Assembly (NCBI GenBank): GCA_965216465.1
Contig: CBDCFW010000006.1
Coordinates: 544,001 to 608,000 of the forward strand
DNA length: 64,000 bases
Reading direction: 5' to 3'
DNA from: Bacteroidia bacterium
GTDB taxonomy: Bacteria; Bacteroidota; Bacteroidia; NS11-12g; UBA9320
The notes below the pieces were generated by a model. It worked only from the letters and a program-made list of their open reading frames with translations. It did not search any database and was not told where the DNA came from. The translations under genes and the position numbers were made by a program. Each line of letters starts with the position of its first letter. Position 1 is the stretch's first letter. Shown piece by piece: positions 48,543-62,245 of the stretch.

Positions 48543-48675
48543 TTCTCAACTAAAATATTGAAGCCCCCCCAAAGCTTTGGGGATGGGAGGACCTTTTTGT
48601 ATCTGGTCATTTCAGTTATAACGATTATAAATTCACTTTTCTCGTTTGCATCACGTGAATTTTCAAGGGTTTGAT

Positions 48676-48683
48676 TAAATTTG
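48676..48683 (+). promoter_or_regulatory. -7 promoter box for the six-gene AAA operon
   Basis: TAAATTTG, 25 nt upstream of ATG 48709. Confidence 0.55.
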
Positions 48684-48708
48684 GGCAACTAATATTTTAA
48701 AACAAACT

Positions 48709-50073
48709 ATGTCAGATTCCTTTGATTTACTTGACCAACTAGGGGACCAAGAAAAAGTAGAAGCTCTAAAAGCAAAAATTGAAAAAAAGACCAGCACAGA
48801 TATCTCGTCTAAGCTGGACAAAATTGAACAAGAAATAGAAAAAGCAGTTGAAGAAAATCGCTCAACTGAAGATATCGTTTCGGGCATTATCAATGCCAAT
48901 TTTGAAACATTAAATGGAGATGTAAATGCTACTGAAGCTGATCTTCAAGAATTGATGCTCCACCTGAGATCGATGCTCGATAGTTGTGGGGGTGAATTTG
49001 CCAACTTACAAGAGTTGAATGATTCAGAATTAAAACTTATTGATAAGGCGACTAAAGCTCGTGAAGTTGCTGAAAAAGAAGCTAGCGATGCAGAGTCGAT
49101 GTCAAATGCATGGAATATCCTGTTTGGGTACAAGAACCGCAAGGTAAAAGCCACAAAAACCGATCTTACTAAAAAAATTGAGTTGTTAAAAGCTGCTGAA
49201 GCAGAGGCCCAAAGAAGATATCGTGAGCGTTTAAAAAATGCGGATATTGGTGAAAGTTTAAATCGAATCATTAGCCAAGTTCAAGGCATGGTTGGCATCG
49301 TAGAAAACATGATTGTTGATGTTGATGGCCAAATCGGTGCGTTGAAAAATCGTAAAGAGCTTGCATTCGATACCAAAGAGAAAGCAGCTCGAATAATGGA
49401 AGAGCGTAAAACAGACCTGGATGATGTTGAAGTTAAACTCAAAAGTGCTGAAGCCGAGTTAACAGAGTTAGCCAATAACAGCCCTGAGTACACCGAGCAA
49501 GAAAAGAAGATTGCAGATCTTAAAGAGATGCGTGCGAACCTTAAAGGTAAATTCAATATTGCTTTGGGTATTTTCCAGTCTAAAGAAAGATTCGTTGATC
49601 AAATTGTGGTTCACTTAGAAGCACAAACTACAACTAAGAATAACCTGAAACAATTAATTGGACAACTGAAGAGTGACACCGAAGAAAGGGTTACAACTTA
49701 CGAATCAGGCTTACAGCTTATCCAATCAGCAACTGCACAAGAAGCCGCTTCAATGTATGAAGAAGCAGGGGTTAAAACCGATCAGAAGATTACTGAAATT
49801 GCGGCTAAAGTTCTTGTTGGTTCTGAAAAAGATAGAATTGAGCGTGTGAAGAAACATCCTCAAAGAATGACTGAATTGCATAAGGTTCTTGTTGCCATGG
49901 CTGAAGCTACCGCAAAATATAAGGAAGAGGATGCAAAGCTAATGGAGGAACACAGCAAAAAATTTGGAATTAATGTAACTGAAACATTCTCTTCAAGCTA
50001 CGAAGGCAAGGCAGATACGCCAACTGAAGAGTCAAAAGGAAATGACAACTCTGTAGATAATTTAATGGATTAA
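48709..50073 (+). CDS. Hypothetical long coiled-coil protein (AAA operon gene 1)
   Basis: 454 aa, E/K/A/L-rich with heptad periodicity; no signal peptide or TM helix. Confidence 0.8.
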   Translation: MSDSFDLLDQLGDQEKVEALKAKIEKKTSTDISSKLDKIEQEIEKAVEENRSTEDIVSGIINANFETLNGDVNATEADLQELMLHLRSMLDSCGGEFANLQELNDSELKLIDKATKAREVAEKEASDAESMSNAWNILFGYKNRKVKATKTDLTKKIELLKAAEAEAQRRYRERLKNADIGESLNRIISQVQGMVGIVENMIVDVDGQIGALKNRKELAFDTKEKAARIMEERKTDLDDVEVKLKSAEAELTELANNSPEYTEQEKKIADLKEMRANLKGKFNIALGIFQSKERFVDQIVVHLEAQTTTKNNLKQLIGQLKSDTEERVTTYESGLQLIQSATAQEAASMYEEAGVKTDQKITEIAAKVLVGSEKDRIERVKKHPQRMTELHKVLVAMAEATAKYKEEDAKLMEEHSKKFGINVTETFSSSYEGKADTPTEESKGNDNSVDNLMD

Positions 50074-50087
50074 CGCAGAGCATATAG

Positions 50088-51185
50088 GTGAAACCAATTG
50101 ACATAAATAATCATTTTACGTCCTTAGACCGAAGTGTCTTGGACGGAGAAAATGCCTATACTGCCTATTTCGGATATGTAAAAAATGCCTTAGATATTCT
50201 CTTAAGCTCATTTAACAGAATTCCAAGTCATAATCCTTTAGAGGTGGTTATGCTTAAGAAGTTTGCTCAAAAATTCTTGCATACCATTGAAGCCTTTCGG
50301 TTGAAGTATAACTTCGACGAGAATCAATCGATGTTGGTTGATTTAACGGAAAGTAGTTTTCCTAATTTCTTAGAATTTAAACGGTTACAAGATGACTTGC
50401 ACAAACGTGAGGCTCAGCTGAAGTCACTTCCGAACAAGGACACATTAAAGCAGAATATTTTAGATGCACTAATTCGAAATCATAAAGATCCGAATCGACT
50501 GCTTCAGCAGCTGAGTAAACGCAACTATTATTCGAGTTTAGAAATACATAAACTGTTTTTTGAGTTTACTCCTGGTAAAATTGAGTTAATCAAACAGCAC
50601 GATGATAAAGAAGAAACAAGAACCTACTTTTATTCTTGGGCTTCTTTTGACAGTGTTACCAACAAACCTTATGTATACACAATGGTGTTTGACAATCCAA
50701 CCAACACCAAGCATAGCGGTGGCGACATCAAGCGAGACCATGACTTTATCGAGGTCATAAAACGATGTACACACAACAGCGCACCGCTAAAAGTGGTTGC
50801 ATCAGATATTGATAATTCATACGAGAATATCTACCCAAAAGTGCTTAAACGAATTGAGTTGGGTCCAATTTATGGGAAGTATAGCCAAGACAAACATCCC
50901 TTTACGCTTATGCTTCGAAATCATTTTTCGGAAGAAGATTTCATTTTAACCTATCAAACCGAAATTGTTTTCTCGGTAGGTCAAAAGCGAACTTCCTCAT
51001 TTCTATCGAAGGGTGAATTGAGACAAGTATTTCATGTTGACGAGTCAAATAAAGACTGCATGGAAAAAATGATATCTCAACTCGACAAATATATGATTAC
51101 CTCGCATCGCGTACTGCAATACATTAACGATACTCAGCCAGAGGCATTAAAAGAACTTACTGTTCCTGCCTACGTATATAATTGA
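50088..51185 (+). CDS. Hypothetical soluble protein (AAA operon gene 2)
   Basis: 365 aa ORF, GTG start; stop 1 nt before the next ATG. Confidence 0.75.
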   Translation: MKPIDINNHFTSLDRSVLDGENAYTAYFGYVKNALDILLSSFNRIPSHNPLEVVMLKKFAQKFLHTIEAFRLKYNFDENQSMLVDLTESSFPNFLEFKRLQDDLHKREAQLKSLPNKDTLKQNILDALIRNHKDPNRLLQQLSKRNYYSSLEIHKLFFEFTPGKIELIKQHDDKEETRTYFYSWASFDSVTNKPYVYTMVFDNPTNTKHSGGDIKRDHDFIEVIKRCTHNSAPLKVVASDIDNSYENIYPKVLKRIELGPIYGKYSQDKHPFTLMLRNHFSEEDFILTYQTEIVFSVGQKRTSSFLSKGELRQVFHVDESNKDCMEKMISQLDKYMITSHRVLQYINDTQPEALKELTVPAYVYN

Positions 51186-51186
51186 T

Positions 51187-53148
51187 ATGGAAAAACAAGA
51201 ATCATCATTACTCAAAATAAAAGAAGAAGACTTATTAGAATATAAGGATGAAGTAACGGGATACCTCAAAACGGTAAGCTGGAAACCCGATCATAAAAAC
51301 TCGAATCAAAGTATTGATTTGAATTTTTTAAGTGATGTAACAAAGGCTCTCGATATTCAGAAAGAAGATGAGATTTCGATTATGAAAGCCGCAATTCGCA
51401 TTAGCAATGACCGGGTAATCCTTTCAAACCAATCGAACCACGTACTTAATGCCATTCGAACGGGGTTTTGTATTGGTAAATATGTTGCCTCGCTCTATTC
51501 TGATACCAGCGGATTAGAATTGCTGCATCAAAAGAATGTAAGTGGTTCGCTCCACCAATCTGAATTGCCTGAATTTCATGATAAGAGTCAAACACAGTCG
51601 GCTATTTTACTGTATAGTGCTGCCTCTTATATCAAATTTACATTGCAGGACTATCTGGCAGATGAAGTGTCGTCTATTCAAATCGACTTCGGGGGAATTC
51701 CTCAAGTAAGTTTAACACGACCAACAAAGGCCATCAAGTGTGCTTTGTATTACTATGCGGCATACCTTGAAAAGTCAGGAATTGTAAAAACTGATCTACA
51801 CTTCATAAAAATGACCTTGCTCTATTTCGAGCGGTTAATGGAAGAGATTCAGCTTCGTAAGAATGCGTTAAAATACACGACCGTATTTTCTGATAATCAC
51901 TACAAACTTGAGAATTCTGAGTTTGTAATTCAAGGGTTTGAACAAGCCTCTTTAGCAAGTGTTAAAGGAATGCAATTCAATCCAATCAGAATGGAGCAAA
52001 TTGTATCGAACAAACAAGCTAAGCACATGTTTAAGCGCTATGCGGATCGATTAATGTGCTTTGACTTTGAGGCGAAGAAAAATCCGATGAATGAATTGGG
52101 AGGACTTCCTTCAATCACTATGGCAGATGGTAAGCCAGGTACAGGAAAAAGTATGCTTATCGCGGCAACAGCAACCTTACTGCAGGAACGATGCGATCAG
52201 CTTGGTCACAACTTTTTATTTTGGCCTCTTCCTGAAAATATTGTTTCTACTTTTCAAGGTGGAACTGCAGAAAGAGCCATGGAATGGTTTAAACCCATGC
52301 AGGACACCAACAAAATTGTATTTGCACCTATCGACGACGCCGAAAACAATCTTGAAGAAAGAACCAGACAAGGAGTTTCGGCTGGTGTTAGGGAATTTAT
52401 CGGAGTGTTTTTAAGGAATACAGAAGGGGCTTACGCAGTAAACAATGGAAACCGATTAATCAGCTTGTTCACTAACATCCCAGACCAAATTGATAAAGCT
52501 GTACTCTCCAGAATCCAAATGAGAATCTCGATGGAAGGTGCATCAGATAAGTACGACTTTATTGACCAAGACTACCTCTGGTGGAATAAATATGCTCAAC
52601 TCGATCAGAATTTCATTGACAATACCGATCCTTCGAGTTATACCTACATGGAAGCTCAAAAATCTGTTAATTCAATTAACGATTTACTCAGCGACAAGTA
52701 CAAATTCACCAATGATAAGGTAAAAGACATTTACAAGGATTGCTTAGATGATGTAGATATCAATTCGCATGAATTTTTTGGTGTTTTTTACAGTGAGATT
52801 TTAAAGCAATATCCATTTTTCTCTTCTCGTGACCTTCGAAACATTCAGAAGGCTGTTGATGCTCGATTGATCGATTTTGATTTGCCAGAAGTGTGGTGGG
52901 AGAATCACGATGATTTCTTTAACAAAAATTATGACGACAAGTTGGTCATTCTTAAAGAACTGATGAAGGAAAACATGAAAGGAGCATCGTTTAGTCAAGT
53001 TCGCGTATTTGAAGCATTGAACTACATCGAAAATGCCATACGAATTAATGAAACTGGCATAAATAGAGACATCAAAGAGCGTGCGAAACAGATGTATATT
53101 CAAGAACAAGCAAGTAAAAAGTTAAGAAGCGGAGAGATACATGATTAA
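51187..53148 (+). CDS. AAA family ATPase with about 280-aa N-terminal domain (AAA operon gene 3)
   Basis: Walker A GKPGTGKS (52129-52152), pore loop IVSTFQG, Walker B APIDD, sensor-1 FTN, SRH IDKAVLSR. Confidence 0.88.
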   Translation: MEKQESSLLKIKEEDLLEYKDEVTGYLKTVSWKPDHKNSNQSIDLNFLSDVTKALDIQKEDEISIMKAAIRISNDRVILSNQSNHVLNAIRTGFCIGKYVASLYSDTSGLELLHQKNVSGSLHQSELPEFHDKSQTQSAILLYSAASYIKFTLQDYLADEVSSIQIDFGGIPQVSLTRPTKAIKCALYYYAAYLEKSGIVKTDLHFIKMTLLYFERLMEEIQLRKNALKYTTVFSDNHYKLENSEFVIQGFEQASLASVKGMQFNPIRMEQIVSNKQAKHMFKRYADRLMCFDFEAKKNPMNELGGLPSITMADGKPGTGKSMLIAATATLLQERCDQLGHNFLFWPLPENIVSTFQGGTAERAMEWFKPMQDTNKIVFAPIDDAENNLEERTRQGVSAGVREFIGVFLRNTEGAYAVNNGNRLISLFTNIPDQIDKAVLSRIQMRISMEGASDKYDFIDQDYLWWNKYAQLDQNFIDNTDPSSYTYMEAQKSVNSINDLLSDKYKFTNDKVKDIYKDCLDDVDINSHEFFGVFYSEILKQYPFFSSRDLRNIQKAVDARLIDFDLPEVWWENHDDFFNKNYDDKLVILKELMKENMKGASFSQVRVFEALNYIENAIRINETGINRDIKERAKQMYIQEQASKKLRSGEIHD

Positions 53149-54414
53149 GCTTGTACAAAACGGACTTTTTGGTAACAACCTGTATTCGGTTGATAGTCCT
53201 CCTATGGTTAAACGATACAATGAATGCTTGGAGGATATTGGTTTACAAAAAACGAAGCTTAAAAAGTTTCATATTGATGGCTGGGGATGGAGCCCAGAAA
53301 TAGCTGAAGAGCAAAAAAATCGATTCTATTTGTCACATGGCTTAGCCAATCCATTTGGGGTCATAATTTCACCTAAGCAGCAAAACGCTCCAATCTACAT
53401 GCCGTTTCATAGCTTCGACCGAGAAATTCATAAATACATTTTTAAAACATATAGTCAACAGATTGAAGATATCACAGCCACTTGTGGATTGTGGTTCGAA
53501 TTGGATCAAGAAATCTCAGCCTACCGTTCACCTCAAGATTTGTTAATGGTAGATTATATCAATGTCAATTTCTATTCGGTAGATCGAATCATGACTGCGG
53601 CAAGAGAACAAAGAGCATTGATTAGAGAGTTTCATGATGTGCCTCAAGCTTGGTCAAACGATGAATTGAGATTGAAGATTATAGAAAGCAGTCAAAAATA
53701 TGGGGATCTTAGGTTCCGAAAATTTGAAATCCCAAAGGTTCCGTTTAGTGCGGTAGAAAATTATTATACCCTAGGATTTAACGGGTTATACATTCTCAAA
53801 GGAAAGGGAAATGAGAAACCACTTTTAATCTTTAAAGATAACAGCTCAAAAGTTTCAGGTCAATTGGATAATTCGCACATTGAATTTAACATAGACGACC
53901 CTGGACTTTTAAGTTATTTATACAATAAATCGTTGATTTCCAACGATATTGACTTGTTTACAGATCACCCTAGCTTGATTGAAATCATGAAAGATTTCTT
54001 TCTCGTTAAGGCGGCTGTTGAACATAACGAAAAGGTTGAATTTAAAGACTTAAATACAGTACAAAAGAAGGGTTTGGTTAACAGAATGTTACAAGAAGAA
54101 CTACTGTCTGATGTTTACTTCGAATTGGAACGCTTGCTAAGTGCGTTGCAAAAGCAAGAGCAATTGGACCGATACATAACAAGCGAAACATTGCAACCTT
54201 ATTTGTTGCATCCTCACCCTAGTTTATCAACCCAAGAAAGCGGGTAATTTGGCACTTGTTGTGTAACATCAATGCACATTCACCAATGCTTACGTACTTG
54301 TTCGACAAACCTTCTTTCTACACCGCATATACTTCATGGCCGAAACAAGTACAGGTTTGGATCATTGAAAATATACTTCGACACAAAGAAATTTATAACG
54401 ACTTAATGAACTAA
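53141..54414 (+). CDS. DUF6638-like protein, interrupted by a 1-nt frameshift near 54240 (AAA operon gene 4)
   Basis: N-terminus 'RYN.CL..G...T.L..F.IDG.GWSPEIAEE...YL.HG.AN...IISP.Q...P.Y.PFHSFDR' matches my recollection of DUF6638. Track ORF stops at 54247; the frame from 54241 continues RVIWHLL...YLFDKPSFY...W...W to TAA 54414. Confidence 0.7.
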
Positions 54415-54416
54415 TC

Positions 54417-54918
54417 ATGGATATTTTAATTTCACTCTTAATTGGATTTGCACTTGGTATTGTTTTCTTCATCTGGGATAACAAGAAAGGTAAAAAATGG
54501 CATCGTAGGTGGTATGACCTAAGTCACAAAACACCTTTGGCTGAAGATTCAGAGGATAGCTTTATTGTTAATCAGCCCTTCTCTAAGAAATTGATTCCGG
54601 CAGTGATTATTACCATTCTGTTTAGTTACGTGACATGGTCATTTGGTGACATCAATCCAATTCTGGCGATAATTTCTTCCTTAATTATGCTGGTAGCTGT
54701 ACTGATTGGGTTTTATGTTGGTCCATTCATGAGCAGAACTGTACCTAAAGGTTTAAATGAAGCAAACAAAACATTAAAAAAAGCTGGATGCGTTGGAGCA
54801 AGATATACTTCAAGACCAACCTGAAAAAGAGGTCATTGAAATTAAGCCTAAGGACGAAAATGAGCCCAAAAAAGATGATGATTGGAGAAAAGGAGTTAAA
54901 GACTTTTTAGATAAGTAA
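54417..54918 (+). CDS. Small membrane protein (about 3 TM) with charged C-terminal tail, 1-nt frameshift in A7 at 54776-54782 (AAA operon gene 5)
   Basis: Track ORF ends at 54824; removing one A gives ...TLKKLDALEQDILQDQPEKEVIEIKPKDENEPKKDDDWRKGVKDFLDK*, ending at 54918, 3 nt before the next ATG. Confidence 0.7.
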
Positions 54919-54921
54919 ACT

Positions 54922-56511
54922 ATGGAACAAGCAGAAGAGTCAAGAAGCAGGATTTATTGGGTCCTTCATAACCTCCGCAAACGACTTGGGGGATTTATAA
55001 AACGTGCATTTAAGAATAGACCAATACTTAGCATCATTATATCCTTGGTTTTAGTTTATATGGTGTTTGTAAGCAGGGGCAGTTTTCAACCAGGCTTTCT
55101 ATTCCTAAGAAAATATTACTTGCTTGTTTTAGTCATTCTTTTGATCTTTTATTGGTTTGTTAAAACATGGGAAAGGCGAGAAACTAGAGGTAAAATCATA
55201 ACAACGGTTCTCATGCTGTTGGTAGCAACTGGCAGCTATTTTTATGGTGCTGGAGTATATCGTTATGTTAGCTTGTACTTTCATTACTCTCAAATTAATA
55301 AGGTCGAGCTAGATGAATTTCCCGAGACAGCTTTTGAGCGCATTCAGCCCATTAACTCTGTTCGAACATTAATCAATCAGGAAGGTCTTTCGGAAACAGA
55401 AGATGCTACTTTGCCTCGATTTGTGAGAGGTAGCGACAATGAATATTATTTCACCTGCGCGGTTGGACCTTCTCAGGAATACAAAGTACAACAGATGACC
55501 AAAAACATGTATGAGGTCATTCATATTCCAGCTGATTTGCCCGCTCCGGTGTTTTCAAAAAAATATCGAGAAGAAGTCAATTTTGATGTTGGAGAACTCT
55601 TACTTTTCAGCAAGAAAACTAAGTATGCAGTGGTAAAGAAATTTAACCTTCTGCAGTACTTTAATTATGAGATTGGATCTCCTATTTATGTGCCCAGCCA
55701 AGACAAAGGATGGTTGCAAGTTGTTCCACTTATTCGATGGAAGGGAGTTCTATTTCCTCGTCCTGTGTTTGGCGGGGTGATGGTAATCGATGAAACGACA
55801 TCAGAAGACAACTTTATGATGCGTATTCTATTTGGTGAAGGTCAATACTATACTCCTACTGAAATTCATAACATAGATGGCCTGCATGGGCAAAATTTGA
55901 TCCCTGAAAAAGTGGCCAAGTTCACAGCGGAGAGCTTCCGCTTTACAAATGGTTTTTTTGCTCCTTTACCTATGTATCACGAAGGTGATATACGTATTCC
56001 ATCGCTGCCTAATGACGTTGATCCTCAACCATTTACAGCATTTTTTAATATTAAAAATGATGAGAAGCTGTATAACTTCTTTGGACTAGAACCCTATCAA
56101 GAAAACAAGAAAGGATTGAGTTTAAGTCTCTTTATTCCTGGAGATGATGACAGCAAAGTATATTTTATAGACCACCGAAAATCGAACTTGTCTTACATCG
56201 GAAGCAGTGCAATTTCTGCTAAGATTATTGAAAGTAAAAAGAACTACGACTGGACTAAAAACTACCCAGCTGAAAGCAGACCATTTATTCGAAATGTGGA
56301 AGGAAAATCACGGTTATTCTGGTTAAGCACAATTGTTACCAAGGCAGGTGAAAATACTGGTGATTACATTGGAGGTAGTATCCCAGAAATTACCTTAACC
56401 GATGCCGTGCACGGTAAAGTTGTCTGGATCAACTCTGATTCGCTAATTCAAAATGATTCATGGATCAGACAAGCCCAAAGTGAATTACACAATTATTGGG
56501 AAAATGAATAA
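54922..56511 (+). CDS. Hypothetical membrane protein: 3 N-terminal TM helices plus a large soluble domain (AAA operon gene 6)
   Basis: 529 aa; three hydrophobic stretches in the first about 115 aa, then about 410 aa hydrophilic and aromatic-rich. Confidence 0.78.
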   Translation: MEQAEESRSRIYWVLHNLRKRLGGFIKRAFKNRPILSIIISLVLVYMVFVSRGSFQPGFLFLRKYYLLVLVILLIFYWFVKTWERRETRGKIITTVLMLLVATGSYFYGAGVYRYVSLYFHYSQINKVELDEFPETAFERIQPINSVRTLINQEGLSETEDATLPRFVRGSDNEYYFTCAVGPSQEYKVQQMTKNMYEVIHIPADLPAPVFSKKYREEVNFDVGELLLFSKKTKYAVVKKFNLLQYFNYEIGSPIYVPSQDKGWLQVVPLIRWKGVLFPRPVFGGVMVIDETTSEDNFMMRILFGEGQYYTPTEIHNIDGLHGQNLIPEKVAKFTAESFRFTNGFFAPLPMYHEGDIRIPSLPNDVDPQPFTAFFNIKNDEKLYNFFGLEPYQENKKGLSLSLFIPGDDDSKVYFIDHRKSNLSYIGSSAISAKIIESKKNYDWTKNYPAESRPFIRNVEGKSRLFWLSTIVTKAGENTGDYIGGSIPEITLTDAVHGKVVWINSDSLIQNDSWIRQAQSELHNYWENE

Positions 56512-57186
56512 TTAGGCAGGTTCGCAGCATTCCATCTGCTCTTTTTCTGCATTGAAATCTGGGCTGATATAAGGAATACCTAAGCCTGCTGATCTTACTA
56601 CTAGCATCAACCCTACAAAAAGTAGAAGTTTGGGTGTATGCTTGTTAAGCTTTTGCATTATGCCTGCTTTACCAAATTGCGGCAAGTACGATATGGCCAA
56701 CAAAATAGGTAAGGTTCCCAAACCAAAAAGAATCATGTACAGTGACACATTGAGTGCACTTCCTGCATTGACTGAAAGAATTGCAGCACCAAAGGATAAG
56801 CCACATGGTAAAAGGCCGTTCAGTACCCCTAAAAATAAACTTCCCGTTCTGCCAGGATTGGTTTTTAGCATTCTGTTTGAAACCACTTTAGTTATCTTTT
56901 CAATTAGGCGATTAACCGGTTTGATGTAACCTTTTAAGGCATAGAGAATCAGCAATACTCCACTGGCTAAGCCGACATATTGTTGCATTTCAAAAACTTG
57001 AAGCGGAGATACTAAAAAATAGAAGAATATGGCCAAGGCTATGTATCCAATCCATCTACCAAGATGGTGAACCAGCAATGAAAACAGTGAATATTGTCGT
57101 GCCCCTAATCCTAACATAAATGGACCACACATCGCAGCGCAATGCAAGCTTCCTAATAGACCAAGTATGAAGGCTGACCACATCAT
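56512..57186 (-). CDS. Sulfite exporter TauE/SafE (DsbD_2)-type cbb3 oxidase accessory membrane protein
   Basis: 'GSLHC..MCGP', 'G.LNGLLPCG', 'FGLGTLP'. Confidence 0.85.
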   Translation of the reverse strand: MMWSAFILGLLGSLHCAAMCGPFMLGLGARQYSLFSLLVHHLGRWIGYIALAIFFYFLVSPLQVFEMQQYVGLASGVLLILYALKGYIKPVNRLIEKITKVVSNRMLKTNPGRTGSLFLGVLNGLLPCGLSFGAAILSVNAGSALNVSLYMILFGLGTLPILLAISYLPQFGKAGIMQKLNKHTPKLLLFVGLMLVVRSAGLGIPYISPDFNAEKEQMECCEPA

Positions 57187-57608
57187 AATGCTAATTGTTG
57201 CTTTTTAAAGAATGGTTTTCCGTTTACCTCACCTTGCACTTCCATAATCCAATTTCCTTCTTCCAATTCTCCAAGTGCTATTTTAACATTTGAACTAGGA
57301 CTTGTATCGGTGAAAATAAGATCTCGATCCTGACTTTTATCTGCCAGATGTACCAGCTTAAAACTTGAAATCAGACCGATTGAATCAAACTGAAATAAAA
57401 ACTGATTATGATTTCTAATCAACTCGTAGCTCACATATTTCGCTTGAACTTCCATGTTCATTCGAGAGGCGTGTTCTTCACCTAATTCATAATAGTCTTC
57501 TTCATACAACTCTTGAGAAGATGTAGCCATTTTAATGCCCATTCCTACTATTAATAGAATGAAGCACACCATTGTGACTATCAATATTTTGGACCAATCA
57601 AATTTCAT
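57183..57608 (-). CDS. fixH: FixH/CcoH family protein
   Basis: N-terminal TM, 'L.EEDYYE', 'G.W'; position after ccoG. Confidence 0.75.
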   Translation of the reverse strand: MKFDWSKILIVTMVCFILLIVGMGIKMATSSQELYEEDYYELGEEHASRMNMEVQAKYVSYELIRNHNQFLFQFDSIGLISSFKLVHLADKSQDRDLIFTDTSPSSNVKIALGELEEGNWIMEVQGEVNGKPFFKKQQLAL

Positions 57609-59005
57609 TTTCGTACTGGAGCTAAGAATGTAGTTTCAAAACTACGTAGAAGCTCACCATCTACAAACAGGTCGAGGTGCATTTTATGCTCGTTTTGCGA
57701 AATATCTTTCGCTTGCATCTCAATGATAAAGACTTTTTTCTCTTCACTATTTGCTTCTAGCACTGAGTCTTGCTCGGCACGAGTCATTGTAGCATTATCA
57801 TCTTTCAACACAATTTTAAACTCAACATCATCGAAAGTTTTGTTCACCATCGAAAGGTTATATACGTTGGTAATTGTTCCGTCATCAGCTTCAGCATAGG
57901 TCATTCCAACTGCTCTAAGCACCTTTGCTTCTACACTTTTTCTATTGGCTAAAATGCCTACAGAAGCACCTAGAAGCAATACCATAACCAAGCTATAGGC
58001 AATAATTCTTGGCGTAAACTTGAAACCAACTTTGTTCTCGATGTTATTGGTTGAATCAATACGAATTAGTCCTCTCGGCTTTTTGATCTTGTCCATTACC
58101 GAATCACACGCATCCATGCATGCTGTACAGTTTACACATTCGAGTTGAGTGCCATTTCGGATATCAATTCCTGTAGGACAAACATCTACACAAATACCGC
58201 AGTCAACACAATCGCCCTTGTCTGCTTGACTTTCATTTTTTCTGATTTTGCCTCGTGGCTCCCCCCGAACATGATCGTAATTCACTACCATGCTATTGGG
58301 ATCAAGCATTACACCTTGTAAGCGACCGTAAGGGCAAATCATAATACACACCAACTCTCGAAGGCGTGCAAAAACGAGATAAAAGACAATTGTGAAAATA
58401 ACCAAGCCAATTAAGGTGACATAGTTTTCAGAGAATGGCCCAGTAATTTTAGCCCATAATTCTTCATAACCAATGAGGTACACTAAGAATGTATGAGCGA
58501 TTACAAATGATATTAAAAAGAAGATGCTATGCTTTGCTCCTTTCTTCAGGATTTTTTCCCGATTCCAAGGCATAGCATCTAATTTTCGTTGTTTGTTTGC
58601 GTTACCTTCAATCCAGTTTTCGACCTTTCTAAACACCATTTCCATGAATATGGTTTGTGGACAAGCCCATCCACACCATACTCTACCGAAAATTACGGTG
58701 AATAGAATAATGAAAACCAGAAGGGTGAGAGCGAGAAACACAAAAACGTGAAAGTCTTGTGGCCAAAATGGCTGTCCGAAAACTACAAACTTTCTTTCGA
58801 AAACATTGAGCAGTAAAAGTGGATATCCCCCAATTTTAACAAAAGGTGCTAGGAAAAAGAATGCTAAAAGAAACCAACTTAAATATGTTCTATACCTATA
58901 AAATGCTCCTTTTATTATCTTGGGATATATCCATATCCTTTTACCGCTCTCGGTCACATTAGCTAAATGCTCCCTAAAGTTCTCTGTATTTTTATGATCG
59001 CTCAT
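57605..59005 (-). CDS. ccoG: Cytochrome c oxidase accessory protein CcoG
   Basis: 'GRVWCGWACPQT', 'CPYGRLQ', 'DCVDCGICVDVCPTGIDIR', 'CVNCTACMDAC'. Confidence 0.95.
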   Translation of the reverse strand: MSDHKNTENFREHLANVTESGKRIWIYPKIIKGAFYRYRTYLSWFLLAFFFLAPFVKIGGYPLLLLNVFERKFVVFGQPFWPQDFHVFVFLALTLLVFIILFTVIFGRVWCGWACPQTIFMEMVFRKVENWIEGNANKQRKLDAMPWNREKILKKGAKHSIFFLISFVIAHTFLVYLIGYEELWAKITGPFSENYVTLIGLVIFTIVFYLVFARLRELVCIMICPYGRLQGVMLDPNSMVVNYDHVRGEPRGKIRKNESQADKGDCVDCGICVDVCPTGIDIRNGTQLECVNCTACMDACDSVMDKIKKPRGLIRIDSTNNIENKVGFKFTPRIIAYSLVMVLLLGASVGILANRKSVEAKVLRAVGMTYAEADDGTITNVYNLSMVNKTFDDVEFKIVLKDDNATMTRAEQDSVLEANSEEKKVFIIEMQAKDISQNEHKMHLDLFVDGELLRSFETTFLAPVRK

Positions 59006-59020
59006 TGAGTAGGCTCAAAT

Positions 59021-59920
59021 TTAGCCTTCTACTTCTTCAGTTTCTGTAACTTCAGTTGCTTCTTCAGCAGCTTCCGTTTCAGGTTCTTCTTCAGGTGTCC
59101 AAATTTGACCTTCAGGTTCTTTCGCACCATCTGGGTTTGAACCTTCCAAGCTAATAATATAGCTTGTTACCTCTTGAATTTTCTGCGGACTTAGTTGATC
59201 TTGCCAAGCAGTCATCCCTTTATCGATTATACCATACTTTATCGATTTAAAGATGTTCTTAGCTCCACCACCGTGTTTCCAGTATTCATCTGTAAGGTTA
59301 GGCCCAACATTTCCTTTACCTCCTTTATCGTGACATACTTTACAGTTTTGAATGTAGATCTTTCTTCCGGCATCAATAGCTGCTGCATCGGTTAATGCTA
59401 CAACAGTATTCTCGTCTACAAAAGATGCTTCTTCTTCAAGATTCTCTGTTTTCTTTTCTGTTGCTGCTTCAATCTCAGCCGCGTATTCTTGTTCTTGGGT
59501 CATTCCAGAATCTGTAACACTGTATCTTACAAAATAGATAACAGCAAAAAGGATTGTACCGTAGAATAAGAACATAAACCAAGGTGGAGGAGGGTTATCT
59601 AACTCATAAATTCCATCGTGTGGTTCATTGATACGCGTATCTTGATCTGTTCCAACCGGCTTAAGCTGAAATAGCTTCTCCCAGGTTGTACGTTGATCGT
59701 ACATTTTTTGTTCTTCTGATTCGTATTCACCGCGTACGTACTTTTTCAAGCTAATCGTAACTCTATACAGTAAATAGGTTACCAAAAGTAGAAGACCAAC
59801 AATTATATATATGATCCATAACAAAGGCTCAGATAAGCCGCCTTGTGCCTCCCCTGACTGTGCAAACAGATTAAAGGAAGTTAAACTCGCTATTAGTGTT
59901 AGGGCAATTTTATTCTTCAT
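59021..59920 (-). CDS. ccoP: cbb3-type cytochrome c oxidase subunit III
   Basis: 'DGIYELDNPPP.W', heme motif CKVCH, 'GPNLTD.YW.HGG', 'GM.AW'; ATG 59920 preferred. Confidence 0.9.
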   Translation of the reverse strand: MKNKIALTLIASLTSFNLFAQSGEAQGGLSEPLLWIIYIIVGLLLLVTYLLYRVTISLKKYVRGEYESEEQKMYDQRTTWEKLFQLKPVGTDQDTRINEPHDGIYELDNPPPPWFMFLFYGTILFAVIYFVRYSVTDSGMTQEQEYAAEIEAATEKKTENLEEEASFVDENTVVALTDAAAIDAGRKIYIQNCKVCHDKGGKGNVGPNLTDEYWKHGGGAKNIFKSIKYGIIDKGMTAWQDQLSPQKIQEVTSYIISLEGSNPDGAKEPEGQIWTPEEEPETEAAEEATEVTETEEVEG

Positions 59921-60089
59921 GATTTTCAATTTTTGATGGTTTTAAGGGTAAATTAGATAACTCTGTTACTTGTTCTTTATTGAGTGAAAACATGTACACC
60001 GCAGCAAGAACAAATACCATTATAAAAATTAGAAGAGCGATAATCAAATAGACATCTGCACCTTCAACGTATCCTATCATTTTTCCCAT
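59910..60089 (-). CDS. ccoQ: cbb3-type cytochrome c oxidase subunit CcoQ
   Basis: Manual translation (59 aa, not in track): MGKMIGYVEGADVYLIIALLIFIMVFVLAAVYMFSLNKEQVTELSNLPLKPSKIENHEE*; single TM and 'S.LPL'; lies between ccoNO and ccoP. Confidence 0.82.
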   Translation of the reverse strand: MGKMIGYVEGADVYLIIALLIFIMVFVLAAVYMFSLNKEQVTELSNLPLKPSKIENHEE

Positions 60090-60097
60090 AATTCTAA

Positions 60098-62245
60098 TTA
60101 TTTAGTTGCTTCCTCCTTATTATTAATATCTCGTCCTAATTTATGCAGATAAGCTATCAAAGCAATAATTTCTTTGTTCTTATCTACCTGGATTCCTTTC
60201 TCGTTTGATAAGAAATCAGCAATTTTTTGTGCTTGCTTATCAAGATCTTGCTGAGCGATTTGCTCGTAACCTTCAGGATAAGGTACTCCGAGTTTACGCA
60301 TCGCAGAAATCTTTCCTGCCAAATCTGAATAATCGCCATCTTCATCAATTAACCAAGGATAAGCTGGCATAATTGAACCATCTGAAGTTGATCGAGGATC
60401 TTTCATATGGCGATAATGCCAATCTGCAGTCTTGTAAACTTTAGAAGAGGTATTACCTGTTCTTGCCAAATCCGGACCGGTACGCTTACTACCCCATAAG
60501 AATGGATGGTCGTAAACATTCTCTCCAGATTTTGAATATTCACCATAACGAACAGTTTCAGATCTAAATGGTCTTACCTGTTGAGAGTGACAGTTGTTAC
60601 ATCCTTCTCTGATGTAAATATCACGTCCTTCTAACTCAAGTGGAGTATAAGGCTGAACATTCGGAATGGTCTGAACATTCGACTCAACTAAGAACGAAGG
60701 AACAAACTCTACTATAGTTCCAATACCAACAGCAAATAATGAGAAAACGAGCAGTTGAACTGGACGTTTTTCAATCCATCTGTGCCAGTAAGCATGTTCT
60801 ACCTTGCCCGGCTCGTCTTTAACCAATGGGTAAGCTTCTGCTGGCTCATCAGCAACAAGACTACCTTGGCCAATTGTTTTAGCTAAGTTCCAAACCATAA
60901 TAATGGCTCCAGATAAGTAAAGTAAACCACCAAAAGCTCTAATCATGTGCATTGGAAGAATCTCTAAAGTTGTATCTAAGAAGTTACCATATTTCAAGTA
61001 TCCGTCAGCAGTAAATTGGTTCCACATTTGACCTTGAGTAAATCCAGCAAAGTACATAGGAATTGCATAGAACAAGATTCCTAAAGTAGCGATCCAGAAG
61101 TGAGATGAAATCGCCTTCTTCGAGTAGATCTTAGTATTGTAGATTTTAGGGATGATGTAGTAAAGGATAGCAAAAGTTAGCAATCCATTCCATCCTAATG
61201 CTCCAACGTGAACGTGGGCTACAATCCAGTCTGTAAAGTGGGCAATGGCATTTACATTTTTAAGTGAAAGCATAGGTCCTTCAAAGGTTGCCATACCGTA
61301 AGCAGTAATACCAACAACCATAAATTTAAGAACCGCATCATCACGTACTTTATCCCATGCACCTCTTAAGGTCAACAGACCGTTTAACATACCTCCCCAT
61401 GATGGAGCGATAAGCATAATACTAAAGATTACACCTAATGTTTGTGCCCAACCTGGTAATGAAGTATACAACAAATGGTGAGGACCAGCCCAGATATACA
61501 AGAATATCAATGACCAGAAGTGAAGAATAGACAACTTGTAGGAGTAAATTGGTCTATTCGCCATCTTAGGCATGAAGTAGTACATCAATCCCAGGAATGG
61601 TGTTGTAAGGAAGAATGCTACTGCATTGTGACCATACCACCATTGCACCAAGGCATCTTGCACCCCTGCATACCAAGAGTAAGACTTAAGGAAGGTTACT
61701 GGCATCTCAAAGCTATTTACGATGTGTAATAGTGCTACCGTAACAAACGTTGCGATGTAGAACCAAATAGCCACATAAAGATGCTTTTCTCTTCTTTTGA
61801 TAATGGTACCTAACATATTCCAACCAAACACTACCCATATAACTGCAATGGCAATATCAATTGGCCATTCAAGCTCGGCATACTCCTTTGAAGTAGTAAT
61901 ACCAAATGGAAGGGTAAGTGCGGCTGCAACAATGATCAGTTGCCACCCCCAAAAGTGAATTTTACTTAAGGTGTCGCTAAACATTCTCGTTTTCAACAAA
62001 CGTTGCAATGAATAGTAAACACCCATAAACACAGCGTTACCCACAAAGGCAAAAATGATTGCGTTGGTGTGCAGTGGTCTCAAACGACCAAAGGTGATGT
62101 ACCGTGTGTTAAAATTAAAATAGGGGTCAAACAATTGCGTTGCAATTATTACCCCAACTAGCATACCAACCAGGCCCCAGACCATGGTGGCGATTGCAAA
62201 ATTTTTGACAATCCGATTGTCGTAATTAAAGGTCTCTTTTTGCAT
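60098..62245 (-). CDS. ccoN: cbb3-type cytochrome c oxidase fused subunits I/II (CcoNO)
   Basis: 'FGRLRPLHTN', 'WWYGHNAV', 'GPHH', 'HVH'; CcoO part 'EGC..CHSQQVRP', 'WGSKRTGPDL', 'MPAYPW'. Confidence 0.96.
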   Translation of the reverse strand: MQKETFNYDNRIVKNFAIATMVWGLVGMLVGVIIATQLFDPYFNFNTRYITFGRLRPLHTNAIIFAFVGNAVFMGVYYSLQRLLKTRMFSDTLSKIHFWGWQLIIVAAALTLPFGITTSKEYAELEWPIDIAIAVIWVVFGWNMLGTIIKRREKHLYVAIWFYIATFVTVALLHIVNSFEMPVTFLKSYSWYAGVQDALVQWWYGHNAVAFFLTTPFLGLMYYFMPKMANRPIYSYKLSILHFWSLIFLYIWAGPHHLLYTSLPGWAQTLGVIFSIMLIAPSWGGMLNGLLTLRGAWDKVRDDAVLKFMVVGITAYGMATFEGPMLSLKNVNAIAHFTDWIVAHVHVGALGWNGLLTFAILYYIIPKIYNTKIYSKKAISSHFWIATLGILFYAIPMYFAGFTQGQMWNQFTADGYLKYGNFLDTTLEILPMHMIRAFGGLLYLSGAIIMVWNLAKTIGQGSLVADEPAEAYPLVKDEPGKVEHAYWHRWIEKRPVQLLVFSLFAVGIGTIVEFVPSFLVESNVQTIPNVQPYTPLELEGRDIYIREGCNNCHSQQVRPFRSETVRYGEYSKSGENVYDHPFLWGSKRTGPDLARTGNTSSKVYKTADWHYRHMKDPRSTSDGSIMPAYPWLIDEDGDYSDLAGKISAMRKLGVPYPEGYEQIAQQDLDKQAQKIADFLSNEKGIQVDKNKEIIALIAYLHKLGRDINNKEEATK

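Follow-up and report, generated by a model that had tools for sequence, protein, structure and literature searches.

The locus described here raises the question of what kind of system is encoded by six consecutive genes at positions 48709-56511 of a stretch of DNA from a Bacteroidia bacterium (GenBank assembly GCA_965216465.1, contig CBDCFW010000006.1, positions 544,001 to 608,000; this whole stretch of 64,000 nucleotides (nt) is called the window below). The genes specify, in order, a coiled-coil protein, a soluble protein of no named family, an AAA ATPase, a DUF6638 protein and two membrane proteins. The cassette is a genuine system, widespread but undescribed. Our reading of it, which we hold tentatively and at somewhat less than an even chance, is that it encodes a membrane-tethered AAA protein-remodelling machine in which genes 1-4 supply a core in the cytoplasm and genes 5-6 a membrane module that can be exchanged. 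All six genes are on the plus strand, with gaps of 14, 1, -8, 2 and 3 nt after two frameshifts are read through. Open reading frame (ORF) calls and stop-to-stop frames agreed on this layout, as given in a preliminary description of the window, and the product sizes claimed there, including those of about 424 and about 166 amino acids (aa), were reproduced when the frames were read through. Comparisons with Pfam, NCBIfam, PADLOC and PHROG matched the cassette to no characterised system. No paper describing it was found, and a literature search combining AAA ATPase, coiled-coil, gene cluster and Patescibacteria returned none.

The distribution of the cassette was traced using DUF6638 alone as bait in a scan by pattern and tblastn through a collection with one genome per species, which yielded at least 554 DUF6638 relatives among 587 candidate stretches. 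Synteny was counted in the best 80 of these at least 554 loci, with two rounds of profile search. Matches to gene 1 were found in 71 loci, to gene 2 in 73, to gene 3 in 76, to gene 4 in 80, to gene 5 in 72 and to gene 6 in 68, and the matched genes were colinear and on one strand in every locus (80/80). All six genes were present in 63 loci, and 10 more loci were cut by a contig or locus end; one locus had no separate call for gene 2 and a gene 3 ORF of 1028 aa. The median gaps between genes 2-3, 3-4, 4-5 and 5-6 were 2-12 nt. The co-occurrence of the genes across genomes was borne out by this neighbourhood analysis, and the operon criteria of shared strand, short gaps and kept order all apply to the cassette. 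The 80 loci bear about 12 phylum labels, including several groups of the candidate phyla radiation (CPR), Verrucomicrobiota, Thermodesulfobacteriota, Bdellovibrionota, Deinococcota and Pseudomonadota, and several of the CPR genomes are small (one of 1.1 Mb). A gene order fixed across about a dozen phyla, genome-reduced CPR included, points to a multi-protein machine under strong joint selection. The preliminary description had mentioned a similar core in other Bacteroidota and in Rhodobacteraceae; the first part held, and a four-gene form was seen in Alphaproteobacteria (Rhizobiaceae), while Rhodobacteraceae were not among the 80 loci kept. A vicinity to TelA or SPFH genes, also mentioned there, was not recovered: 25 Pfam families were listed for the 94 immediate neighbours, and neither TelA nor SPFH was one of them.

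The product of gene 3 is the only one with a recognisable activity, as had been claimed, and the other genes lack characterised relatives. The Pfam AAA model (PF00004) matched it with E 1e-8 (36.1 bits against a cut-off of 21.2), and its family profile matched Cdc48 D2 (E 5.4e-9), VAT (E 6e-8), NVL, Afg2, Rpt4 and Vps4B, with E values from 5e-9 to 1e-6. The protein comprises an N-domain (residues 1-258 approximately), an AAA core (approximately 259-450), an insertion and a helical lid around residues 544-554. Across 38 sequences, the Walker A motif G-PGTGK was invariant at G315, P317, G318, T319, G320 and K321; pore loop 1, S-T-F-Q-G-G (354-359), which fits the pattern of an aromatic residue, any residue and Gly, was invariant at Q357 and G358 and nearly so at S354. 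The second region of homology, in which arginine fingers follow the sensor-1 T-N, was invariant at T429, N430, P432, D436, A438, S441, R442 and R446. The Walker B motif reads I-D-D-A-E, with D383, D384 and E386 also invariant; its acidic residues are in an unusual order, since the usual Walker B of classical AAA proteins is D-E-x-D. Judged by the profile matches and by its Walker A, pore loop and arginine fingers, gene 3 encodes a classical-clade AAA ATPase. No Pfam domain was detected N-terminal of residue 315, and the N-domain profile gave a single match in the PDB (E 0.056), which was not MIT; the MIT domain of Vps4/CdvC was thus not found by sequence. NCBIfam, PADLOC and PHROG gave nothing significant, the best being a weak match to IetA in PADLOC (E 0.0027) and one to an unannotated PHROG family (E 1.7e-6), both on the AAA domain.

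In sequence, the ATPase core matches best to Cdc48/p97/VAT, which have paired cofactors such as Ufd1-Npl4, and the two soluble proteins whose genes flank the ATPase gene are placed as cofactor genes might be. In contrast to Cdc48/p97/VAT, gene 3 specifies one AAA ring and not two, its N-domain is unrelated by sequence, and nothing similar to known cofactors was detected in genes 2 and 4. A complex prediction for the ATPase N-domain (1-258) with the DUF6638 protein, run without controls, scored 0.00 and speaks neither for nor against binding.

Gene 2 matched nothing in Pfam, NCBIfam, PADLOC or PHROG. Its profile search gave 538 representative clusters, those listed being about 200-415 aa long, with no fusions in the best 150; none of 67 relatives carried a Pfam domain, and no listed relative had a name beyond "hypothetical". 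Gene 4 matched Pfam DUF6638 (PF20343) with E 2.4e-32 (112.8 bits against a cut-off of 27), which agrees with the earlier DUF6638-like assignment. The match covers profile positions 2-328 of 439, and the remainder lies in another frame (54223-54414) and aligns to congeners; owing to the frameshift, an uninterrupted full-length DUF6638 domain was not found, and gene 4 belongs to the family as a frameshifted member in the source genome, where DUF6638 is single copy. DUF6638 is a Pfam family with no assigned function, and the name was not mentioned in any paper found by full-text literature search. For an intact congener DUF6638 protein, the AlphaFold model reached pLDDT 89.8 and pTM 0.85, and its best Foldseek match in the PDB had E 0.89, so that no neighbour was identified. 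Neither DUF6638 nor a gene 2 homologue had a usable match or a stored model in the ESM Atlas. When the profiles of genes 1, 2, 4 and 6 and of the ATPase N-domain were compared with PDB sequences, only coiled-coil noise came back.

Genes 5 and 6 have no Pfam family, and the hydropathy scan found three transmembrane (TM) segments in each, in agreement with the preliminary description, which had also noted the large soluble domain of gene 6. The TM segments of gene 5 are at residues 1-19, 59-77 and 82-100, and a conserved charged tail ends in a D-W-R-x-G-like motif. Gene 6 has a basic N-terminus, three TM helices and a beta-rich C-terminal domain of 419 aa. In the topology predicted from the basic loops, which are inside, the gene 5 tail is cytoplasmic, as is the gene 6 N-terminus, and the 419-aa domain faces outward. 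None of 120 listed gene 6 relatives carried a Pfam domain or a name beyond "hypothetical". AlphaFold modelled gene 6 with pLDDT 89.1 and pTM 0.86; Foldseek found one PDB match at E <= 0.001, with a TM score of 0.13, and the query TM score never exceeded 0.22. Both folds, that of DUF6638 and that of gene 6, are thus predicted with confidence, yet no solved structure is a convincing neighbour of either. Among predicted viral structures, gene 6 had one full-length look-alike, BFVD A0A6G5YLZ4 (588 aa, E 1.1e-16, TM scores 0.57/0.52), which was not traced in the INPHARED phage or IMG/VR collections. A tblastn search of 50,697 phage records with two versions of DUF6638 and with gene 6 gave no match. 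In IMG/VR, patterns drawn from the DUF6638, gene 6 and ATPase alignments retrieved no relative, only five generic AAA matches.

The division into a core and a membrane module was suggested by loci that depart from the six-gene form. Genes 1-4 only were found in 4 of the 80 loci (Desulfonema magnum, a Yonathbacteria metagenome-assembled genome (MAG) and two Trueperaceae), and an 882-kb plasmid of Vibrio parahaemolyticus carries genes 1-4 alone. In Sinorhizobium meliloti the order is hypothetical, hypothetical, ATP-binding, DUF6638-like and DUF2333, the last being membrane-anchored with two N-terminal hydrophobic segments. One paper lists SMc02733 of S. meliloti as a ChvI-bound fragment; the tag could not be equated with the ATPase gene and is given no weight here. 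In Winogradskyella (L080, L081 and L086) an opposite-strand gene for a 944-aa trypsin-like protease with a type IX secretion system sorting domain lies between genes 4 and 5 (about 11290-14130 in L080), so that the operon is split by the insertion. The core-only loci, the DUF2333 swap and the Winogradskyella insertion together argue that the cassette consists of a core, genes 1-4, and a membrane module open to exchange. Kinship of gene 6 with DUF2333 was considered and rejected (hhalign probability 0.3%). By full-text search, DUF2333 was found in one paper, solely as a neighbour gene. A NUDIX gene adjoins duf2333 in Pseudomonas fluorescens (PMC5256989). In ten loci of the Flavobacteriaceae clade (L071-L073, L075, L083, L088-L090, L092 and L093; e.g., L083:9318-9908), the ATPase and DUF6638 genes have a NUDIX hydrolase gene between them. 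In S. meliloti Ak57 (L132, CP090106.1, 7060-8805), the same two genes are separated by an endonuclease-domain gene and an ISRm16 transposase; this record is labelled pSymB and is 3.72 Mb long.

Gene 1 encodes an acidic protein whose net charge is -21. Heptad periodicity was present in 30% of its 28-residue windows, compared to 6.2% in shuffles (200 shuffles, largest 16.9%), which upholds the description of the protein as a 454-aa coiled coil. The columns of an N-terminal D-S-F-D-L-L motif were conserved in 43-62 of 71 homologues, and no Pfam family matched. The preliminary description had likened the cassette to ESCRT-III/Vps4 or PspA/TelA-like systems. Of 37 gene 1 homologues, none matched the PspA_IM30, Snf7 or TelA Pfam models (PspA_IM30 and Snf7 at E <= 0.05). 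By hhalign, the probability of a relation to PspA was 13.5% over 105 columns and that to TelA 0.5%. Six-frame hidden Markov model searches found neither PspA (PF04012) nor TelA (PF05816) in the source genome; in the same searches, PspA was found in 42 and TelA in 6 of 121 Bacteroidota genomes, the source genome included. Membership of gene 1 in ESCRT-III, PspA or TelA is thus unsupported, and so is the suggested kinship. The Vps4B AAA domain is among the gene 3 profile matches (E about 2e-6), which is the likeness to Vps4/CdvC with ESCRT-III (CdvB, Snf7) and to PspA/Vipp1. The cassette differs from these systems in that gene 1 is not detectably PspA or Snf7, in that the 258-aa N-domain of gene 3 has no sequence match to MIT or another PDB entry, and in that its conserved genes 2, 4, 5 and 6 have no counterpart there. 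A coiled-coil client, an AAA ATPase and membrane anchors, as in ESCRT-III/Vps4 or PspA, may still serve as a possible working analogy. The AAA contexts described in a 2024 survey of phage shock protein systems, at least in its passages on such contexts, have different architectures from the cassette (PMC11237479).

In the machine that we tentatively favour, genes 1-4 would form the cytoplasmic core, composed of the acidic coiled coil, a single-ring AAA ATPase and the two soluble proteins whose genes flank the ATPase gene. As a classical AAA protein, the ATPase would thread polypeptide through its central pore; its likeliest client would be an assembly of the coiled-coil protein, or else the tail of the membrane partner, and ATP hydrolysis would disassemble or reset the client assembly. 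The membrane module would consist of the two 3-TM proteins, that of gene 5 being small, with its tail in the cytoplasm, and that of gene 6 having a large outward-facing domain that may couple the core to the envelope. The gene set, its order and conservation, the class and motifs of the ATPase, the membrane topology and the lack of known relatives are read from the sequences; that the proteins act jointly, what their client is and that they bear on envelope physiology we infer. A bolder version, which we consider rather unlikely as a whole, is that of an ancient, unrecognised prokaryotic envelope machine, in which the coiled coil assembles at the inner membrane face, the AAA ATPase with two novel-fold cofactors disassembles it, and the whole is coupled across the membrane to the novel outward domain. 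Such a machine would be an independently arisen functional analogue of ESCRT-III/Vps4, kept from CPR to Flavobacteriaceae, with a core form in Proteobacteria and a membrane component borrowed by at least one virus.

Several observations weigh against a membrane-tethered remodelling machine. The D-D-x-E order of Walker B, instead of D-E-x-D, makes catalytic competence uncertain, and gene 1 has no detectable homology to any polymer-forming family. The six proteins are presumed to associate physically, and the six genes are probably co-transcribed, judging from spacing and synteny only; no RNA run was listed as containing the region. Genes 4-6 occurred without adjacent genes 1-3 in 2 of the 80 loci. 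The distribution is also patchy: the congeners sampled had DUF6638 in 4 of 24 cases, the sister-family genomes in none of 16, other Bacteroidota, drawn evenly, in 3 of 400 and the sampled Flavobacteriaceae genomes in 96 of 301. Patchiness among congeners and other Bacteroidota is no less compatible with an accessory or conflict role than with a housekeeping one.

An anti-phage or conflict system, in which the outward domain of gene 6 or the core senses infection and the AAA ATPase activates an effector (e.g., membrane disruption by the coiled coil), would account for the patchy occurrence in congeners and other Bacteroidota, but we consider it improbable. Almost a third of the sampled Flavobacteriaceae (96/301) carry the cassette, and 16 loci of the Flavobacteriaceae clade have a same-strand ABC-F gene upstream. 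An ATPase tree (FastTree, 70 sequences) mostly followed phylum labels, with 12 changes against a minimum of 11, although it contained cross-phylum neighbours of the kind a defence system might show; Bacteroidota ATPases fell in at least two clades, and because of long branches the deep nodes are unsafe. The cross-phylum example is that the ATPases of a gammaproteobacterial MAG (L050) and a Buchananbacteria CPR MAG (L059) were sisters with branches of 0.13 each, which reflects either a recent cross-phylum transfer or a binning error. The presence of the cassette in several small CPR genomes also argues against defence. Likeness to IetAS and other AAA defence systems consists of the AAA ATPase and the weak IetA match of gene 3, which was the sole match in PADLOC-DB 2.0.0 (systems to 2023); the other five proteins matched no PADLOC model, and the cassette has no IetS-type protease or other defence component. 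Nor did Pfam and NCBIfam reveal a nuclease, protease, NADase or other effector domain. A Cas6 gene adjoins the cassette in one Trueperaceae locus, but among the 94 immediate neighbours in 55 loci no defence family recurred beyond generic ATPase models, with Cas6, BrxH and DpdF once each. These neighbours were mostly housekeeping genes that varied by locus, and no Pfam family recurred more than three times. Defence had been named as an alternative in the preliminary description, and the PADLOC check and the neighbour scan give nothing in its favour.

The intact pore loop of a classical-clade AAA would also suit envelope-protein extraction, assembly or quality control, in which the ATPase pulls or unfolds a membrane or secreted client, as do Msp1, Bcs1, FtsH and Pex1/6, and the coiled coil is an adaptor and not the client. 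Two dedicated membrane partners, one with the conserved charged tail ending in the D-W-R-x-G-like motif, and the replacement of the membrane partner by membrane-anchored DUF2333 in other lineages are in line with this explanation. We nevertheless regard it as unlikely, given that core-only forms have no adjacent membrane gene, that no protease domain or chamber accompanies the ATPase and that no candidate client gene is conserved nearby.

A separate explanation concerns the status of the copy in the window and not its function. The two single-base frameshifts were confirmed by stop-to-stop frames and by the congener genes. Gene 4 runs over 53141-54247 (368 aa) and then in another frame over 54223-54414, with a net loss of one base (-1) bracketed to about 54225-54247; gene 5 runs over 54417-54824 (135 aa) and then in another frame over 54778-54918, with a net gain of one base (+1) within an A7 run at 54776-54782. 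In four congeners, tblastn placed both pieces of each gene in a single frame, and the intact ORFs (n = 4) were 422-423 aa for gene 4 and 171-177 aa for gene 5. The frameshifts mean that the copy in the source genome may be recently inactivated, unless they are assembly errors. That the cassette here is a recently inactivated pseudo-operon, with genuine frameshifts, is a plausible explanation to which we give a little under an even chance. Among about 50 genes in the 64-kb window, no split gene was seen besides genes 4 and 5, whose frameshift sites are within 560 nt of each other, and the absence of DUF6638 from 20 of the 24 sampled congeners indicates that loss is common in the genus. On the other hand, the shifted downstream frames are open to their natural stops and 48-60% identical to congeners (tblastn), so the events are either very recent or artefactual, and the A7 run in gene 5 is a typical error site. 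Metagenome contigs (three runs of one study, about 2x depth) matched the window without difference, but none bridged either frameshift site. A 544-nt metagenome contig spans exactly 54237-54780 and thus ends at both sites; its ends may mark places where the reads disagree with the assembly, or may have fallen there by chance, the depth being 2x.

The coordinates of the cassette features are collected below.

Table 1. Features of the six-gene cassette, in window coordinates.
Feature	Position	Strand	Basis or remark
-7 promoter-like box, Bacteroidota-type, TAAATTTG	48676..48683	+	26 nt 5' of gene 1 ATG; motif match
Gene 1, acidic coiled-coil protein, 454 aa	48709..50073	+	ORF call, heptad periodicity
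Gene 2, soluble protein, unnamed family, 365 aa	50088..51185	+	ORF call
Gene 3, classical-clade AAA ATPase (by sequence), 653 aa	51187..53148	+	ORF call, PF00004
Gene 4, DUF6638 protein, frameshifted, 424 aa read through	53141..54414	+	PF20343, congener tblastn
Gene 5, small 3-TM protein, frameshifted, 166 aa read through	54417..54918	+	Congener tblastn, hydropathy
Gene 6, 3-TM protein with large extracytoplasmic domain (predicted), 529 aa	54922..56511	+	ORF call, hydropathy

The preliminary description had placed one -7 box before the six genes. TAnnTTTG is the -7 consensus of Bacteroidota. From the stop of the upstream gene to the end of the cassette (48544-56511 scanned), TAAATTTG was the sole plus-strand match to TANNTTTG, so the box itself stands; TANNTTTG was not enriched in the window (54 matches compared to 74 +/- 8.6 in shuffles), and TAAATTTG alone is therefore weak evidence of a promoter. 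Sigma-70 promoter and terminator scans gave counts at or below shuffle expectation. On its 5' side, the cassette is preceded by ndk and a gene for a tail-specific S41 protease. A G+C-rich palindrome, CCCCAAAGCTTTGGGG, lies at 48560-48600 after the stop of the protease gene, with a T run about 12 nt beyond; the terminator scan made no call there. On the 3' side (56512-62245, minus strand), a cbb3-type cytochrome oxidase gene set (DsbD_2-like, FixH, FixG, FixP and a fused CcoN-CcoO) converges on the cassette, with 0 nt between the stop of gene 6 and that of its convergent neighbour. These flanks give the cassette a housekeeping context. Five complete congeners without the cassette retain ndk and the tail-specific protease gene, and their downstream region differs, so that no clean empty site can be defined.

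Five of the six products lack a characterised relative, though the marker gene occurs in at least 554 stretches and in about one third of the sampled Flavobacteriaceae. Cultured carriers include Algibacter lectus, Aquaticitalea lipolytica, Hyunsoonleella aquatilis and Desulfonema magnum, with the core form in Sinorhizobium meliloti. Once its function is known, the cassette would extend bacterial cell biology by a new ATP-driven system.

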